Source: a virus (Duplodnaviria > Caudoviricetes). Taken from it: DNA of 64,000 bases. This document shows, one piece after another, positions 1-62,200 of this stretch. Positions within the stretch are counted from its first letter, which is position 1, and each line of letters opens with the position of its first letter. The translations under genes and the position numbers were made by a program. The stretch lies in the IMG/VR virus record IMGVR_UViG_3300028048_000065, positions 32,001 to 96,000 of that record. One strand, written 5' to 3'. The notes under the pieces were generated by a model. The model worked only from the letters and a program-made list of their open reading frames with translations, ran no database searches and had not been told where the DNA came from.

Positions 1-171
1 ACGAGACTCATGCTAACATCTTTTTGAATTTAAAACTTCTTCTTCACTTTTATAAACCTGTTTTCCGCATTTTATGCATTCTACCCAATATTTTTTAAAT
101 CCGTTTTTAGAACGAACTCTACTCTACCCTAAAATTTTATAAATTCCAAATACTTTATCTTTTTCTAACAT
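1..171 (-). CDS. Partial CDS (runs off left end); probable HNH-type homing endonuclease N-terminus, 2 in-frame TAG
   Basis: ATG at 171; MLEKDKVFGIYKILG(TAG)SRVRSKNGFKKYWVECIKCGK...; CxxCG motif; open to the window edge only if TAG is read through. Confidence 0.5.
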
Positions 172-213: not shown

Positions 214-364
214 TGGAGCAAGATGCCAGATTTGAACTGGCACTTGAGCTTTGGTGCCAATAATAAGTTTTGCCCTTATATTAAAACAAAAATTTTTTGT
301 CTTAGTTTTTCATTAAACTATATTGACGGAAGAGCCCCGTGCTAACCATTAACACTAATCCTGC
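214..364 (-). tRNA. tRNA-Gly (anticodon TCC by default) with a ~75-nt insertion in the anticodon loop
   Basis: Acceptor GCAGGAT/ATCTTGC + U73 + encoded CCA; D arm GTGT-TAATGGTTA-GCAC; anticodon stem GGGCT/AGCTC; T arm GCCAG-TTCAAAT-CTGGC; G1-C72, C2-G71 and U73 are Gly identity elements. Confidence 0.8.
252..327 (-). other. tRNA-shaped element nested inside the tRNA-Gly anticodon loop
   Basis: GTCAATA/TATTGGC 7-bp acceptor stem + A + CCA; D-like arm GTTT-AATGAA-AAAC; A/T-rich anticodon-like arm; T-like arm ATAAG-GGCAAAA-CTTAT; 76 nt. Confidence 0.7.
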
Positions 365-370
365 ATATTA

Positions 371-470
371 GGGATAGCACCACGCATGATACTATCCCGT
401 GGTGTCTCCGAAGAGAAGTCACGCGCTAACCGAGCAAAGCTCCACCACATCACAACGAAAGGATTGTTGT
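371..470 (-). ncRNA. Candidate structured RNA immediately upstream of the tRNA
   Basis: GC-rich intergenic stretch: hairpin ACAAC/GTTGT; 4-way junction GTGGTG[GAGC-TTT-GCTC][GGTTA-GCGCG-TGACT][TCTC-TTCG-GAGA]CACCAC; 12-bp hairpin GGGATAGTATCA/TGGTGCTATCCC. Confidence 0.5.
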
Positions 471-5034: not shown

Positions 5035-6282
5035 TTACTTAATTTCAACAAGATAGCGAACTGTAACTTGGTCGGGACGATAGAAAATAATCTCAGGATT
5101 TCGGAGCATTCCTTTTTCGGGAGAAGCATAAACACAATGACAAGGAGGATTTTTCTTCTGTAATACATCAAAATTAAAATGATAGCATTCAGAAGTATGC
5201 TCATAAACTATATAAGGATTACCATAAGCAACTTCAAAAATTGCCATAAATCCAGTTTTAGCACTTCCTCTTGCCCAATAAGACCCAGCGGTAGAAGTAT
5301 AACCAATACTCTTTCGAGCAAGAGTGGAAAAATAGAGCCCGTCGGAAAACATCGACCCTGTATATACTGCATTGGCAGGACGAATTTTCAAACCAGTTTT
5401 AAGAATATTGAAAAAGTTTTCACTTCGAGAACCATGCCACATAAGTTTGGTATTATCAATTTTATATTCAGAGCAAAACTTTTTAAAATGTTTGTCTGTT
5501 TCATGATTGTTAACTCGCCAAACTTTAACAAAACGGTCACTGTCTCGACCAAGCATCTTTTTTACAAGAGCCACATCTTCCGCAGTAGCATCTTCCATAG
5601 TAATACCCATTTCATCAAGAACAGAAACTTCATTATTATTGGTGTTACTATCAGCATTTTTCTTTTCAATCTTTACAGGCTTATAAACCTGACCTGCCAT
5701 AGCATCAAGAGTGCTCTGCTCTCGGTCAATAATAGATTTAAAAGAATCAAGGTCATTTTTATAAATAAGGTAATCACTTACATTACTCATTTTACGAGGA
5801 ATAACCATGAAGATTTCCAAAAGCTTTTTGTTGAACTGGTTATAATCCATATTCTCGTAATTAAGAGCAAGATTATCAATTAGGCTCTGAGCTTCATCAA
5901 TCATAGCCTGAGTAACAACGGAAGATTTAACCTTGTAAGCAGACTGAACAACCTTGTTCGCAAAATCATATAGACGCTTAATAATATCTCGAACAGACTT
6001 ATTTTCAATTACTGAAAATTTATCTTTTCCCTCTGTAGGCTCTTCCTCTTTAGAATTTTCAATTACATCTGTCATAAGATGTGTCTGAGAAACATAGCCC
6101 TTCTTAAGCTTAGAATTAATCTGCGAATCCCACTTGGACATGGGATAAATTTTGGTGCTTTCATGTCCACCTACTCGACCGTACTTTACAGTAAAAGTCC
6201 CATCAGAATTTGGTTCGCAATTATAGAATTTATTATGATTGTCAGATGTAACCATAATCAAATAAACAGGCGTCTTTTCCAT
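5035..6282 (-). CDS. WGR-domain PARP-like ADP-ribosyltransferase
   Basis: N-terminal YGRVG (WGR); catalytic WHGS...GSMFSDGLYFS...KSIGY...NPEIIFY (H-Y-E triad); start at MEKTP after GGAG RBS. Confidence 0.85.
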   Translation of the reverse strand: MEKTPVYLIMVTSDNHNKFYNCEPNSDGTFTVKYGRVGGHESTKIYPMSKWDSQINSKLKKGYVSQTHLMTDVIENSKEEEPTEGKDKFSVIENKSVRDIIKRLYDFANKVVQSAYKVKSSVVTQAMIDEAQSLIDNLALNYENMDYNQFNKKLLEIFMVIPRKMSNVSDYLIYKNDLDSFKSIIDREQSTLDAMAGQVYKPVKIEKKNADSNTNNNEVSVLDEMGITMEDATAEDVALVKKMLGRDSDRFVKVWRVNNHETDKHFKKFCSEYKIDNTKLMWHGSRSENFFNILKTGLKIRPANAVYTGSMFSDGLYFSTLARKSIGYTSTAGSYWARGSAKTGFMAIFEVAYGNPYIVYEHTSECYHFNFDVLQKKNPPCHCVYASPEKGMLRNPEIIFYRPDQVTVRYLVEIK

Positions 6283-6323
6283 AAGGAAATCTCCTTTGAT
6301 AAACTTAAATGAGGTATGATAGA

Positions 6324-6352
6324 ATAATACCATACCTCATTCGTTTTGTCAA
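6324..6352 (-). promoter_or_regulatory. sigma-A promoter for the PARP gene
   Basis: TTGACA-N17-TATTAT with extended TG. Confidence 0.7.
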
Positions 6353-6374
6353 TAGGTTTTTATGATTTTTTTGC

Positions 6375-7055
6375 TTACTGATAGCAGAAAGTGATAAAGG
6401 GACGATACTCTTCTTCATCCATCTCATCAAAATAATTGTCAAATTCGTCAAGGATAGCTTCCTTAACAACATCCCAATCAAGATGCCCATGACCACAGCC
6501 AACACGAGGCATTGCCAAATAACGAATCTTATTCTCATAACACTCTTCTGCAATAGCGCGTACACAACTACGAATCGTTTCAAGTGTAGGACGCTGATAC
6601 TTCTTATTTGTAGTAAGCATTACAAAAATATTCTCAATGCAAATAGTATCTCCTGCCTTAAGCCATCCAGTTTCAAGGTCTTCACATTCATCCTCATACT
6701 TTTCAACTGCCTTTTCAAGCTTGTCGCGAAGTCCATAAAAAGCATCAATTTGTCGTGCAGTAGTGCTACCAAAGCTTAAATCCGCAGGAATGGCAAATGC
6801 AATATGATAATAAACAGGAAGACTTAGCATATCGACCTGACGCTCTTCGTAATTATCGTACATAGGAGAATATTCTTCTTCCTCATCTTCAATATCCCAT
6901 CCGCCACCTGAAGCCTCGCCATAATAAATTTTATCGGCTTTTTCACTATCAATATATTTGTCTGTAGATGTACCAGCAGAATAAAAACCATCGCCATCAT
7001 TAGAGTTGGTTTTAATATTAGGATTATAAAAATAATTGCCACTTGCTTCTCTCAT
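6375..7055 (-). CDS. Macrodomain ADP-ribose hydrolase-like protein (TARG1/DarG class) with acidic N-terminal extension
   Basis: LAMPRVGCGHGHLDWDVV motif; IFVMLT.KKY. Confidence 0.75.
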   Translation of the reverse strand: MREASGNYFYNPNIKTNSNDGDGFYSAGTSTDKYIDSEKADKIYYGEASGGGWDIEDEEEEYSPMYDNYEERQVDMLSLPVYYHIAFAIPADLSFGSTTARQIDAFYGLRDKLEKAVEKYEDECEDLETGWLKAGDTICIENIFVMLTTNKKYQRPTLETIRSCVRAIAEECYENKIRYLAMPRVGCGHGHLDWDVVKEAILDEFDNYFDEMDEEEYRPFITFCYQ

Positions 7056-23717: not shown

Positions 23718-24206
23718 TTAGAATTTGCCAGAATCTCCAAAGCCCTCTGCTCCACGAGAAGTCTCATCAAGATTGTCAGTCTCTTCAAACTCTGTCAGGA
23801 TTACTGGTGCAAGCATAAACTGTGCAATTCGCTGCCCATGCTCAATAATCTGAGTCTCCGAAGAATCGTTATGGAGAGCTACAATGATTTCGCCACGGTA
23901 GTTTGAATCAATACATCCTACGGCGTTAGCAGGACGCAATCCCTGTTTCGTTGCAATACCACTGCGAGCATAAATAGCACCCCAATAACCATTAGGAATT
24001 GCCATTGCTAAACCTGTTCCAACCTTTACAGTGGTATGAGGAAGAATCTTCAAACCATTACGCCCTTCTGTGCTACCCCAAGGAATAAAAGTATCATTGG
24101 GAATGTCAGCATACAGGTCAAAAGCAGCGTCCTCTGCATGAGCCTTTGTCGGAATCTTTGCTGTCTCGGTCAACTTCTTAATCTTTACATTAACCATTGT
24201 AATCAC
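23718..24206 (-). CDS. dut: Trimeric dUTPase
   Basis: AAFDL, RSG, G.IDSNYRGE, RIAQ, RG.EGFG.SG. Confidence 0.93.
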   Translation of the reverse strand: MITMVNVKIKKLTETAKIPTKAHAEDAAFDLYADIPNDTFIPWGSTEGRNGLKILPHTTVKVGTGLAMAIPNGYWGAIYARSGIATKQGLRPANAVGCIDSNYRGEIIVALHNDSSETQIIEHGQRIAQFMLAPVILTEFEETDNLDETSRGAEGFGDSGKF

Positions 24207-25576
24207 TCTTCTTTCTTTAAATTGTTTTGTCTTTCTTTTGCTTGTCTAATAGCCTTTTCATGCTGATTCTTTAGTTTAAGAATCTCTGCGTGACGATAAG
24301 GAAAACCACGACGAATAAGATATTGAGTCTCTTTCTCATTTACCATGTTCCTTACATCACTTGCAATACACTTAGGCACATTTTCACTAATCCATACCAT
24401 CTTAAGCTTATTAATATAATTTTCAGGATAATTTTTAAGCTGGTCTTTAAGCTCTTCCATCATCTGATAATACCAATTCATAGCCGCAGTAGTACGAGTA
24501 TTAATATAATTTACAGTCTCAAGATAAAAACCCTTTACAATATCTTTGAAAGCATCGGGGACTTTAGAATAGAAATCATCATACTTGTCATAAGCCAGCG
24601 CTTCAATTACTGCATTAGGAGACACTTGCTTACTAATCACACGATGCATTAAAACGTAATCGTTTACTTTCACTTTCACGCGAAAATCATTATCGTTCTC
24701 ATCTCGCATACGGATAACCCAGCCCTCTTTTTCATTAGAAGAAAAGTTATCAACCTGAGCAAGAAGCGAATCCAGATTTTCAGAATCGTAATACTCTACC
24801 ATCTTACTATCATAAAGAGTAGCAATACTACGAACAGTATCAAAATCCATCTCAGTTCCATCAACACAAGAACGAGCAGAAATTAGATACATTCCCTCTT
24901 GTTCCTTAGTATAATGAACAACAATAGCATTTTTAGTAGAAATGAACTCAAAAATAAAAGTATAATCAGGATAATCCTTAATCATTTGCTTTTGAGAATC
25001 AGTCAAAAGACCAAATCCCTCTTTTAGTCTCCAAGATTCATTCAGACTAATAGCCTGAGAACCCGACCCAAAAATTGTTCCAGAACCATCAGAATTAGTA
25101 ATATATCGGAATTGCTGATAACTACCGTCCATTTTATTGGTAATCCAAATTTTTTGAGCAGAAGTATACTTTTCTCGAATAGCCTTTTCAGACCAATCAA
25201 AAGCATCTTCCCCCATATTCTTGAATTTATTTAGAGAACAAAGTACAAGTTCTTCTTTCTTTACATCAAAGACACAAGAACGACACTCTCGATAAAGTCC
25301 ATCATATAGATAGAAAAAGGTTTCCTCAGAATATCCCATATCACTAAGGTCAATAAAACCCTTGTAATGGAAAAGCACATATTCATTATCAATGGTCATA
25401 TCAAGAGGCTCAAATACATCAAGCAAATCCAAAAGACTTACAATATAAGCTTTTTCTGATTGTTCAGAAAGGTATTCAAGCCAATGCTTAAAATTCCAAT
25501 CTTGAATAGGATTGTGATTATAAGCATATAGAGCTTTTACTTCTTTAATATATCCAAGCAGAGGATGCTTCCACAT
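24203..25576 (-). CDS. T4 Rnl1-like RNA ligase
   Basis: ECRS, KF.N, KMDGS, FEF, EGWV, KVK..Y. Confidence 0.8.
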   Translation of the reverse strand: MWKHPLLGYIKEVKALYAYNHNPIQDWNFKHWLEYLSEQSEKAYIVSLLDLLDVFEPLDMTIDNEYVLFHYKGFIDLSDMGYSEETFFYLYDGLYRECRSCVFDVKKEELVLCSLNKFKNMGEDAFDWSEKAIREKYTSAQKIWITNKMDGSYQQFRYITNSDGSGTIFGSGSQAISLNESWRLKEGFGLLTDSQKQMIKDYPDYTFIFEFISTKNAIVVHYTKEQEGMYLISARSCVDGTEMDFDTVRSIATLYDSKMVEYYDSENLDSLLAQVDNFSSNEKEGWVIRMRDENDNDFRVKVKVNDYVLMHRVISKQVSPNAVIEALAYDKYDDFYSKVPDAFKDIVKGFYLETVNYINTRTTAAMNWYYQMMEELKDQLKNYPENYINKLKMVWISENVPKCIASDVRNMVNEKETQYLIRRGFPYRHAEILKLKNQHEKAIRQAKERQNNLKKEE

Positions 25577-26532
25577 TACTGTGTACCACTTGCAATCCTA
25601 TCACATTTATTAAATAAGAAAAGATTATCAAGCTTTTCCTTTCCCATAATTTTCTCCCACTTTTTCTGAGCCTTTTCGGTCTCAATAAAGAAGGGCAACA
25701 TATGAAAGTTTACATAGAATAAGCACTCAAGACACTTATCATAATCTTCGAAACCAACCCATGCAAGAAGATGCATTAACTCATAACAACCCTTATTATG
25801 GTGGCTATAATAGCGACATTCACCACTACCATCAGGTTTTTCTTCCTGCGTCAACATCTTCCCATAATCATGGATTTCTGCTGCGCGAATAAGGATTTCA
25901 TTATCGGTTCGTTTTGCGACTTCTTCTGCACACTTTTGACAATGCACATCAAGAGTATACTTATGATGAGAATTGCACTGGTCAAATCCTCTCATAAAAT
26001 CTTGAATAACATCTTTATCAACTATTGTTCTTATTAATTCATCTTTAGCATAACTAAAATATCCGCTATTCCAATCAATTAAATTAATTTCATCAAACCC
26101 TTCTTCATAAAAAGGAATCTCAAATTTTCCAATCTGCTTATCAATAACATACTCAGGGACTTTTCGCTCACGCTTACGATTAAGCATCTTGCATACAGGT
26201 TCAGGAGTAGTCATAACCATAGCAATTTTACGCACATCTGAATTTTTACGAACAAGGTCAAGTAGAGGAATACGAGACTTTACATTAATACTGGTAGCAT
26301 CTACAATGACATTCATTTTCCCAATACAGTTGTTAATTCTACGACGAACTTCCTTAAAGACTTCATCATTATGAGTCTGGTCATTAATATCACCATACAA
26401 ATCAACGCGAATCTGGTCAGAGGAAACAATAATAGTTTTCTGTCCATTTCGTTCGTATACATTTTTAATGTTGTTTGCAAAAGTGGATTTACCACTTGCG
26501 ACAGGTCCAACCATAATTACAAGATTAGTCAT
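25576..26532 (-). CDS. Polynucleotide kinase (P-loop) fused to HD phosphohydrolase
   Basis: GPVASGKST, SSD.IR, DAT, R.R; HH...H...HDYGK. Confidence 0.82.
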   Translation of the reverse strand: MTNLVIMVGPVASGKSTFANNIKNVYERNGQKTIIVSSDQIRVDLYGDINDQTHNDEVFKEVRRRINNCIGKMNVIVDATSINVKSRIPLLDLVRKNSDVRKIAMVMTTPEPVCKMLNRKRERKVPEYVIDKQIGKFEIPFYEEGFDEINLIDWNSGYFSYAKDELIRTIVDKDVIQDFMRGFDQCNSHHKYTLDVHCQKCAEEVAKRTDNEILIRAAEIHDYGKMLTQEEKPDGSGECRYYSHHNKGCYELMHLLAWVGFEDYDKCLECLFYVNFHMLPFFIETEKAQKKWEKIMGKEKLDNLFLFNKCDRIASGTQ

Positions 26533-59200: not shown

Positions 59201-62200
59201 TTTTCAGCTGCAACTTGAATTCTCTTTTGAGCCGCTTCAATAGAATTAGTATAAGCTTCCATTTTTTCTACTGCTGTGCCATAAGAATTGGAAGCAATTT
59301 CTTGATATTTAAGAACAGAATCCCAGTTTGAAAGCATGGCAACCAAATTTTCTCTTTGTCTTGTTCCTGCAAGAGAAGCTGCAATACCAGCCTGTTGTAC
59401 TGTAGAATAAGTGTCCCATTTAGAGGCTATTTCATCCAAAACATCATCAAAACTTCTAAATGAACTAACGGTATCACGAAGTTGAATACCCACTGCTCCA
59501 AGAGAAGTTTCAACGTCGTTTAACCGCGCCCAATCTTCCGCATTATAGTTTTCAGACTCAATATCTTCCTGAGCCGCTACAAATTTTCCTGCGGCCACAT
59601 TTTGATACCTTGCATAAAGACTTTTCATAGATTCGCCAATACTGGCCTCGCTCTTTTGTGTTACGTCAATCATTGTAGTAACATAACCAATAAATCTATT
59701 CATCTCCGTTCCTGCAAGCTACGCCGAATTGTTTGCACGGCTCATTGCTTCTGCAATGCCACCCGCGCTTGCCTGTTGTGTTACCTTATATTTTCATATA
59801 AGCACTGACTATATCTTCACCCATTGCTGGGGTACACTACTTCGATTTGTTATCTACGTTTAGTCGATGAGGACGCTTCTCATTAAAAGCTTTCCTGCTG
59901 ATTGACCAATCTTTATAATTTTTAAACCGTCACATTCAGACTTATTTCATTCTCCTGTTGTGGTTTATAAAGCTCTAAGGTGTTTTCAGCATTTCAATGT
60001 ATTTTCCTTATATGTTACCATATTTGCGACCTATTTATTTTAAGCCGCCGCCATGTCTACTGCGTTATGTTTACATTTAGTCGGCTATTCTAAATGCGAT
60101 TTAAATATAAAATTAAATCCACTTCCTTTCGGAACGTGACCAGACTATTTCTTCACCCTTTAATTAAAGGGGCAAACTATTTCGGATAACTTTTAAGCCT
60201 TGTTACCCTACCTTTCTCTCAAAAGATAGTCGTTGAAAGCAACAAATCATTATGCATAACAATTTGTCCACTTGCATGAACATCCATTATTACGAATACT
60301 TAGGATTTAACCTTATATTCATCCTTACGTTTTTTCTACTTTCGTCCCATCACGCTTATCATTACTGATTACGTTGTGGTGTAAGGCTTTAGGATTTACC
60401 TGCTTTTAAGTTTGTGTCCTATGCCGATTACTCGACATACGCTGCATATTGTTACAGTTAATTTATCGACAACTCCCATGACTTCACTGGCTTCGATTTT
60501 CCAGCCCTTCAACACGCTAATCAAATAGCTCGTTGCATCAGCACTTTCAATCATACCAAGCGTACTTAAATACATAGAAGCTTTAGTTAAATCACTTGCT
60601 TCCTTACCTTGATAACCTGCACGAAGCCAATCATTTGCCGCAACAGCGACTTCTTGTGTACTCTTTCCAACTTCTTTAGCAAGATTGTTAAATTCATACA
60701 TCATGTTTTTAACATCACTATAACCCATTCCAGCCGCTATTTGTAAATCTACCATAGCCGCATCAAGGTCTTTTGTATATTGCCAAACTTGTTGTAAAGA
60801 ATTTTTAATATAACCAATTGCTACATAAGCTAAACTATAGTCTGTTAAATTTCTAAGAGAAGCTTTGAAACCATTTGCAATTTGTTGAATTAATCCAACA
60901 CTTTCTTTTTGTCTTAAATTAATTTTTGCAAGTTTTTCTTCTTGGGATGCTTGAGAATTTTCTATCTATTTGTTAAATTGAAGTCTTTCTTGTTCGCTTA
61001 ATTGGGTTCCATCACTAAATTTACCAGTATTACTATCATAGCTAACAGTTTGATTCTTGATAGCTTGCAATCTGGATTGATACATCTCAACTAATTTTTG
61101 TTGCTCTTTGCTACGGGGTCCAACTTGGTCATCCATAGAATTTTGGAGAGTGAGCATATCTCTCTCAATTTTTTGTTGTTCCTTAAGAGATTTTAAATAA
61201 TTTTTCTTTAACGCATCAGCTTGCTTAAGTTGAGCAACTTCCTATTGTTGCTTTGCTTGAGCTGTATCGTAAGCTGTCTGAAGTCCACTTAAGAAATTTT
61301 GAATTAGTTGCGCTGCTTGCTGATTAAAAGGAGTAGGAAGTTCAAGATTGTGTAATTTATCTTGTATCCCAGTTCTATCCGCAGCGTCCACCTAAGCCTG
61401 ATAAGTCTCTTCTAAACTATCCTTTTGAGAATTTAAAACTTGTAGCTCTCTTTCTAAAGTTGCTAAACGGACTTGATTTTCTTCATTATCGCTTCCGATA
61501 AGATTGCTACGCTCTTCCTCTAAAGTTTTAATTTTAAGAGTTACCTCGGCAAATTTCCCGTAAGTTTTTAAGGCTGAACGAAGATTAGATTCAAAATCTT
61601 TCATTTGTCCAATAAGATTATATTGACCTTCATGAACAGCAGTATTATTTTCTTGCTCATTGAACAAGTTGTCTAAATTACGAGGGGCTCTTAGTGCTGG
61701 GTCTACAGAATCATTTCTAAATCTTCTACCATTATAAGGTAAGTTAGACTAATCTCTGGGAGCCTCAACATTAGGAGAACGATTTCCACCTTCTTCAAGT
61801 TCATCTATTCTTTGTTCGTATTCCTTTACTTGTTCTTGAAGAACCTGAATATCTCTACGCAATTCAGAATTGTCATTTCCAGTTGCAACAGAAACAGTTT
61901 CTCCGCCAAAAGTAAAAGGCAATTCACTTTCTTTTGCGGCTTCTCCTTCTACCTTTAAGGCATCAGACAATTTTCCCGCGACTTCTAATTTATCTTTTTC
62001 AGCTTGAACAGCTTTTTGCACAGCTTCAGCATGAGAGTTAAAAGCTTCAGTAGAATCTTTTATAGAAGCAGTTTCGATAGACAATCCATTCGCACCTGAA
62101 ACTGTAGTAGGAGCAGTATTTTTTGGTTCATCTGGAACGTAATATTTTCCACTATCTACCAAAGATTGATAACGATTCATTAACCCAGTTAAAGGGTCTT

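Follow-up and report, generated by a model that had tools for sequence, protein, structure and literature searches.

Introns in the anticodon loops of bacterial and phage tRNAs are known in the form of group I introns, as in tRNA-Leu(UAA), and to our knowledge all bacterial and phage tRNA introns described so far are self-splicing ribozymes, protein-dependent tRNA splicing being regarded as an archaeal and eukaryal trait. RNase P and RNase Z are also known to free tRNA-shaped modules from larger RNAs, as in tRNA punctuation, t-elements and mascRNA-type processing, and in phage T4 the enzymes Pnkp and Rnl1 mend anticodon-loop breaks made by PrrC. The described introns most similar to those reported here are those of Lak megaphage tRNAs, which were called 'enigmatic' and one of which 'itself may encode a tRNA' (Devoto et al. 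2019, PMC6784885, Fig. 4); some genomes have them and others lack them, and the copies found are nearly identical (Devoto et al. 2019, PMC6784885). We found no literature on nested or tRNA-like introns except that paper, and neither Borges 2021 nor the phAss-1 paper mentions such introns. The inserts described below resemble the Lak introns (PMC6784885) in that they occur in TAG-recoded gut phages, lie in anticodon loops and show presence/absence polymorphism, but they belong to 150-220 kb rumen phages rather than to the 540-kb Lak lineage. The Lak paper (PMC6784885) contains no boundary rule, family description or mechanism; beyond it we report 16 distinct inserts, a rule by which each unit runs from its own +1 to its NCCA end, variable positions in the loop and a link to an Rnl1-type ligase. 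The observation as such is not new, and our additions are the rule, the anticodon corrections and a one-base anomaly.

The stretch of DNA that we analysed (the window, 64,000 nt) comes from an IMG/VR virus record of 149.5 kb, of which it covers bases 32001-96000, and the phage is present in bovine gut samples from 12 studies. It recodes TAG, with ORF coverage rising from 0.74 to 0.88 once TAG was read through, and encodes a tRNA(CUA) detected by ARAGORN with introns allowed. Default ARAGORN called no tRNA in the window; with introns allowed it found a tRNA-Gly(UCC) at c[214,364] whose anticodon loop is interrupted by 75 nt, and this gene is the first member of a minus-strand tRNA gene cluster (genome 23.3-32.4 kb). 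The 5' exon (328..364, minus strand) contains the acceptor 5' strand, the D arm, the 5' strand of the anticodon stem (GGGCU) and the loop bases CUUCC, of which 330..328 are the anticodon UCC. The 3' exon (214..252, minus strand) supplies the loop bases AA (252, 251), the 3' strand of the anticodon stem (AGCUC), the T arm GCCAG-UUCAAAU-CUGGC, the acceptor 3' strand, U73 and an encoded CCA. All four stems of the outer tRNA are paired in the ARAGORN cloverleaf and its features are those of a bacterial tRNA-Gly, including U73 (at 217), G364-C218 (G1-C72), C35 and C36; the third acceptor pair is A-U rather than G-C. The interrupted locus had no blastn match among GenBank phages, and an exact 20-mer of the outer tRNA had no match in IMG/VR. 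Immediately 5' of the tRNA is a structured leader (365..470, minus strand; fold z-score -3.51, no Rfam match) that folds into a three-hairpin multiloop closed by GUGGUG/CACCAC, followed by a 12-bp hairpin. The bases (A)UAU directly precede +1 of every cluster tRNA gene in G000-G004 and are lacking before the inner tRNA look-alikes; they may represent a common processing or promoter context. Window 5035-7055 (minus strand), which is separated from the tRNA cluster by a few kb, encodes an ADP-ribosylation writer/eraser pair: a protein with a PARP catalytic domain, which also matches WGR weakly, and beside it a macro-domain protein.

The 75-nt insert (253..327, minus strand) follows C36 and separates nucleotides 36 and 37. 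The exon ends in CUUCC, and the insert begins at G327, the first base of a 7-bp closing helix (327..321 paired with 262..256, GUCAAUA/UAUUGGC), which is followed by a D-like arm (318..305), an anticodon-less hairpin (303..283, 9 bp with a 3-nt loop, at the position of an anticodon arm), a T-like arm (279..263, AUAAG-GGCAAAA-CUUAU) and the tail A255 C254 C253, an ACCA end if A252 is counted. The closing helix is stacked on the 5-bp stem with its 7-nt loop, the minihelix that we used to recognise the wider family. The minimum-energy fold of the locus is a cloverleaf nested in a cloverleaf. For the insert the fold z-score is -2.78, with 2 of 200 shuffles folding equally well, and for the whole locus it is -3.49, with 0 of 200. 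The Rfam tRNA model matched the insert over 327..255 (26.6 bits, E 0.005), below its gathering score of 29. This score, the 3-nt hairpin loop and the T-like loop GGCAAAA led us to reject the insert as a decoding tRNA, and ARAGORN did not call it as a tRNA. A group I intron was rejected as well: the insert has 75 nt where such introns usually reach 200 nt or more, it shows no P3-P7 core match, and RF00028 was silent at the insert even when E values up to 10 were admitted. The locus is a genuine gene for tRNA-Gly(UCC), split between nucleotides 36 and 37 by an anticodon-less tRNA look-alike. The original prediction, made from this sequence, had described a tRNA-shaped insert in the anticodon loop of tRNA-Gly, and it is confirmed by ARAGORN, by reading of the sequence, by the Rfam match and by an empty-site allele; its further statements that the anticodon and T loops are degenerate, that there is no BHB motif and that the insert is too small for a group I intron all hold.

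Relatives were gathered via the neighbouring protein (DUF5662), which gave 80 related viral loci. Four close relatives have the leader upstream of the tRNA in common; it is 93-96% identical across these sister phages by blastn and alignment, even before differing tRNA-Gly genes. In L013 (11707-11782) the same tRNA-Gly is uninterrupted and has the loop CUUCCAA, and this empty site shows that the 75-nt element is a true insertion between nucleotides 36 and 37, for which the CC repeat at the junction permits three equivalent registers. At the same site of the same tRNA, L014 carries a different, 92-nt tRNA-shaped insert; L193 has the same outer tRNA with yet another tRNA-shaped insert at that site, and L012 and L015 carry another tRNA-Gly behind the leader. 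Of the four outer tRNA-Gly genes in the window, G002, G003 and L193, three are interrupted, and no two of the four have the same anticodon stem, each stem being fully paired. The outer exons show a compensatory G-C to A-U change relative to the uninterrupted gene of G002, and the D stem of an interrupted tRNA-Pro shows a compensatory change beside an identical intron. Together, the divergent but paired stems and the compensatory changes argue that the outer exons have been kept under tRNA-type constraint. An interrupted Ile gene is kept in at least seven phage contigs.

Intron-aware scans of tRNA regions identified 16 distinct inserts of 47-122 nt in about 12 related 150-220 kb rumen phages, interrupting genes for tRNA-Gly, Glu, Gln, Lys, Ile, Leu, Thr and Pro. 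Each was parsed with a template consisting of a 7-bp helix directly on a 5-bp stem, a 7-nt loop and then four bases. These last bases were NCCA in 13 of the 16 inserts (ACCA 6, UCCA 4, CCCA 2, GCCA 1), although the parse did not require it, and excision from +1 through NCCA left an anticodon loop of exactly 7 nt in 12 of the 16. The insertion points vary, lying at 32/33 in Ile(UAU), at 34/35 in Leu(CAA) and Thr(UGU), at 35/36 in Gln(UUG) and Lys(UUU) and at 36/37 in Gly, Glu and Ile. The exceptions are the window and L014 copies, each off by one base, and the 47-nt Pro insert and the Leu insert of L015, which do not fit the rule. The closing helices differ in sequence yet pair throughout, with 29 pair types over seven positions, a statistic inflated by the parse threshold of at least 6 of 7 closing-helix pairs. 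With this same qualification, the covariation of the insert in relatives that had been suggested as a check was found. A D-like arm UAGUUUAA..AAAC and a T-like arm GCAAG-UGCAAGA-CUUG are shared within the family, and the combination of varied but paired helices with common arms indicates descent with selection on shape. Among the tRNA genes of the clade itself, those for tRNA-Gly(UCC) and tRNA(CCG) have a D arm similar to that of the inserts (UAGUUUAAUG..AAAC). The inserts thus form a diversifying, presence/absence-polymorphic family in anticodon loops across a clade of TAG-recoded rumen phages, and the core of the family is a 12-bp acceptor/T-type minihelix followed by NCCA, the unit extending from +1 to the CCA end.

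Other unusual tRNA-like elements were encountered in these searches. A scan with the motif GCAAGUGCRAGWCUUG returned mostly chance matches, about 10 loci being true relatives. A conserved RNA encoded at genome 26463-26583 (minus strand) resembles a tRNA in its well-formed acceptor, D and T arms and its CCA, and has a long irregular region where the anticodon arm would be; copies occur in L012 (9058-9177), L014 (17300-17419), L015 (17706-17825) and L179 (13339-13457). ARAGORN forces this element into 'Ser/Ile/Val with a 23-46-nt intron', and it does not fit the minihelix-NCCA template. An amber-suppressor tRNA(CUA) with a 219-nt anticodon-loop insert is found in L119 (2925-3229), L173 (3341-3645, complement) and L193 (1251-1543, complement) and is uninterrupted in L146; the L119 insert had no Rfam match at E up to 0.01 and is possibly a divergent group I intron, possibly an element of another kind. 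A 114-nt tRNA hit in the distant relative G012 proved to be a different oddity and was not counted as a tRNA-shaped insert.

The boundary rule changed the identity assigned to several tRNAs. Genes with 85-nt and 120-122-nt inserts that ARAGORN called 'Glu(UUC)' became Gln(UUG) with the loop CUUUGAC when +1..NCCA was excised, and this is the loop of the uninterrupted Gln gene in the same slot of G000. Like those Gln genes, the corrected genes have A1-U72 and G73, and ARAGORN re-called the spliced form as a canonical tRNA-Gln. The rule also yields Lys(UUU) and Thr(UGU). Altogether, intron-aware ARAGORN mislabels four interrupted relatives: three receive a wrong anticodon, so that a Gln is called Glu, a Lys is called Gln and a Thr(UGU) is called Thr(GGU), and a tRNA-Glu is called 'SeC'.

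The window's own copy departs from the rule by a single base. Excision from +1 through ACCA leaves the 6-nt loop CUUCCA instead of the 7-nt loop typical of the family, and the 7-nt loop CUUCCAA is obtained only when the 3' cut is placed after ACC. The L014 insert (ACA|AA) has the identical one-base deficit, and the L193 insert (UCCA|AA) follows the rule. A contig from an independent sample lists no length change for the window's tRNA-Gly, which makes an assembly slip an improbable source of the deficit. A register in which RNase Z cuts after the discriminator base was considered and rejected, as it fits the window copy alone, via the CC repeat, and fails for L014 and Glu1. For the window copy two options follow, splicing shifted by one base or a defective tRNA as the product; for the window and L014 Gly genes taken together, either the 3' cut is flexible or the genes are defective hosts of a well-folded insert.

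The distribution of the inserts bears on how they may move. They are present or absent gene by gene among genomes, and two phages with different exons have the very same 47-nt Pro insert. In L014 the entire anticodon stem beside the insert differs, which, as judged from the sequence, looks like co-conversion at the DNA level. A free-standing HNH endonuclease gene (367 aa with four in-frame TAG codons; Pfam HNH_3/HNH; genome 31068-32171, minus strand) starts 43 nt 3' of the interrupted tRNA-Gly and runs off the window start, so that its 5' part occupies 1..171. It is absent at the tRNA-Gly position in L012-L015, and a pattern scan of IMG/VR gave no relatives of the protein; local tblastn located homologs among the tRNA genes of related phages. 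In contigs from two other bovine samples, position 329 of L011 is joined to 1609 (genome 31083-32363); this DNA-level variant means that some strains lack the HNH gene and the interrupted tRNA-Gly or have other sequence in their stead, the two going together as one cassette. In collaborative homing, an intron without an endonuclease is accompanied by a free-standing one, as in the cyanophage psbA/F-CphI type. The present arrangement is similar in having a free-standing HNH gene close to the interrupted gene, with homologs beside interrupted tRNAs in relatives; compared with psbA/F-CphI the association is weak: in 4 of 7 cases the tRNA nearest to an HNH homolog is interrupted, which is not clearly above chance given that roughly one third of tRNAs would be expected to be so. 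The inserts share with group I tRNA introns the anticodon-loop position, mobility and nearby homing endonucleases, but they have no ribozyme core, measure only 47-122 nt and have no Rfam match; classic 184-nt group I tRNA introns were seen in unrelated contigs. Inserts probably spread between tRNA genes at the DNA level by recombination or homing, perhaps aided by the free-standing HNH endonucleases among the tRNA genes.

The insert boundaries coincide with a tRNA's own ends whatever the exon context, which indicates that no ruler from the outer tRNA is used and points to tRNA-end processing. This coincidence suggests that ordinary tRNA-trimming enzymes could excise the insert and that a phage ligase could rejoin the halves. 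We propose that the insert would act as an intron defined by tRNA-end processing: host RNase P would cleave at insert +1, leaving the 5' exon with a 3'-OH; an endonuclease would cleave right after CCA, leaving a 5'-phosphate on the 3' exon; and the phage Rnl1 would close the resulting anticodon-loop nick, the sealing of such nicks being the reaction for which T4 Rnl1 is specialised. Such an intron could occupy any position of the anticodon loop, even within the anticodon. As in tRNA punctuation, t-elements and mascRNA, a tRNA-shaped module would set both cut sites; unlike in those systems, where the flanks are not rejoined, the flanks here are tRNA halves that need ligation. We hold this tRNA-end-processing intron, sealed by Rnl1, to be the best explanation of the locus, with moderate confidence.

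The window encodes a candidate sealing enzyme, an Rnl1-type RNA ligase of 457 aa (24203..25576, minus strand; Pfam RNA_lig_T4_1, PF09511, 51.5 bits). Coupled to it is the gene for a P-loop polynucleotide-kinase-like protein of 318 aa (25576..26532, minus strand) with a Pfam AAA_33 match at residues 4-140; Pfam detected no phosphatase or HD domain in the C-terminal half. The side-by-side ligase and kinase and the proposed sealing of an anticodon-loop nick recall T4 Pnkp/Rnl1; in contrast to T4 repair, the event proposed here would be a programmed excision, probably with 3'-OH and 5'-P ends. Since RNase P-type and RNase Z-type cuts give such ends, neither kinase nor phosphatase would be needed. 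The original prediction of processing nucleases followed by the phage kinase and ligase is therefore retained in part: its nuclease and ligase steps agree with the +1/NCCA boundaries of the family and the encoded Rnl1, found by comparison, and the kinase/phosphatase step would be dispensable. Rnl1 orthologs occur in the insert-bearing G002, G003, G005 and G007, that is, in four of five insert-bearing relatives, the fifth being a 50%-complete record, and both Rnl1 and tRNA-shaped inserts were absent from all five distant relatives (100 tRNA hits in all, with a working positive control for the Rnl1 search), a correlation that amounts to a single phylogenetic contrast. Rnl1 and Pnk have another known job, the repair of anticodon-nuclease damage. 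Two candidates could make the cut after CCA, a Thermotoga-type RNase Z and the phage's own beta-CASP/RMMBL metallo-beta-lactamase ribonuclease of 486 aa (genome 103796-105255, L211:796-2256, minus strand). The closest PDB relative of this candidate is TTHA0252, followed by Ysh1, CPSF73 and INTS11, and it is kept in G002, G005 and G007. Its candidacy is by analogy with CPSF73, which cleaves after ACCCA behind the histone stem-loop. Counting against the proposed cut, RNase Z is blocked by CCA in Bacillus. We found no CCA-adding enzyme gene in the phage genome. The contigs labelled as coming from 'RNA' libraries, 20-45 kb long, look like DNA.

The most serious competitor to tRNA-end-processing splicing is that the tRNA-Gly is dead and the insert alive, RNase P and 3' processing releasing the look-alike from halves that are never rejoined; the freed look-alike could then act as a decoy that draws off anticodon nucleases or defence proteins that bind tRNA. 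We regard this as unlikely overall, though it deserves weight: the family rule leaves the window copy with a 6-nt loop, tRNA-Gly is available from the host anyway, another anticodon-less look-alike (genome 26463-26583) lies between phage tRNA genes, and other strains replace the entire HNH and tRNA-Gly cassette. Against a dead gene, the outer exons keep a perfect cloverleaf and compensatory changes both in the window and in other interrupted genes, exact excision gives back a canonical loop, with the anticodon that the slot calls for, in 12 of 16 cases, and the same interrupted Ile gene is retained in its seven or more contigs. Another account makes the insert a fossil of RNA repair, in which the phage ligase joined a mature CCA-ended tRNA into one cut by an anticodon nuclease, and a reverse transcript of this chimera entered the genome by recombination. 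It would explain why the unit spans precisely +1..NCCA and why its place in the loop varies, since the cut sites of anticodon nucleases vary too, and would do so without any present-day splicing; the encoded Rnl1 and the likeness of the insert D arm to the clade's tRNA-Gly(UCC) and tRNA(CCG) genes are also in its favour. We nevertheless think it improbable, because the inserts are one related family with T-like hairpins in common and covarying closing helices, as expected from descent with selection and not from repeated capture, and because the stem difference in L014 looks like DNA-level co-conversion; moreover, it accounts for the origin only and is compatible with splicing.

Mechanisms that place the cutting activity elsewhere fare worse. 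A self-cleaving ribozyme at the insert junctions might be entertained because group I introns abound in the window (RF00028 match at 59785-60052) and because a kinase adjoins the ligase, but the 75-nt insert has no Rfam ribozyme or intron match and, apart from CCA, no junction nucleotides are conserved across the 16 inserts, making this very improbable. An archaeal/eukaryal-type BHB intron cut by an EndA-like endonuclease is hardly credible: the anticodon-loop position is near the canonical site, but the strands CUUCC and ACCAA cannot make the 4-bp central helix, the family sites range from 32/33 to 36/37 with no common exon-intron pairing, and PF01974 (EndA) is absent from the phage genome in a search that detected the archaeal controls. 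We likewise give almost no credence to splicing in a shifted register that would yield a Gly-charged, CGG-reading tRNA, which the original prediction had raised from the junction sequence CUUCC-G. If the first G were kept the loop would be CUUCCGA, with UCC still at 34-36 and G at 37; the empty-site ortholog has CUUCCAA; and all these phages have a dedicated tRNA(CCG). This part of the prediction is not supported. In the present phage the dedicated gene lies at genome 24446-24516 (minus strand), 7.5 kb before the window start, and although ARAGORN calls it Arg(CCG) it is Gly-like, with U73. Its closest non-CCG relative is the tRNA-Gly(UCC) of the sister phages (76% identity, D and T arms nearly identical), and orthologs are present in L012-L014, L119, L146, L179, L188 and L189.

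Splicing guided by tRNA ends is thus the reading that we prefer, and the comparative pattern leads us to a broader and somewhat more tentative suggestion, that gut-bacterial phages may use a third, so far undescribed tRNA splicing route in which a CCA-ended tRNA mimic would be removed by RNase P and an after-CCA nuclease and the exons sealed by an Rnl1-type ligase. If true, this would be a splicing route built solely from housekeeping tRNA processing and RNA repair, and Rnl1-type ligases would gain a programmed role beyond damage repair. tRNA-shaped inserts conceal phage tRNAs from standard gene finders or cause them to be mislabelled, and thereby distort the inference of codon use and recoding in alternatively coded phages.
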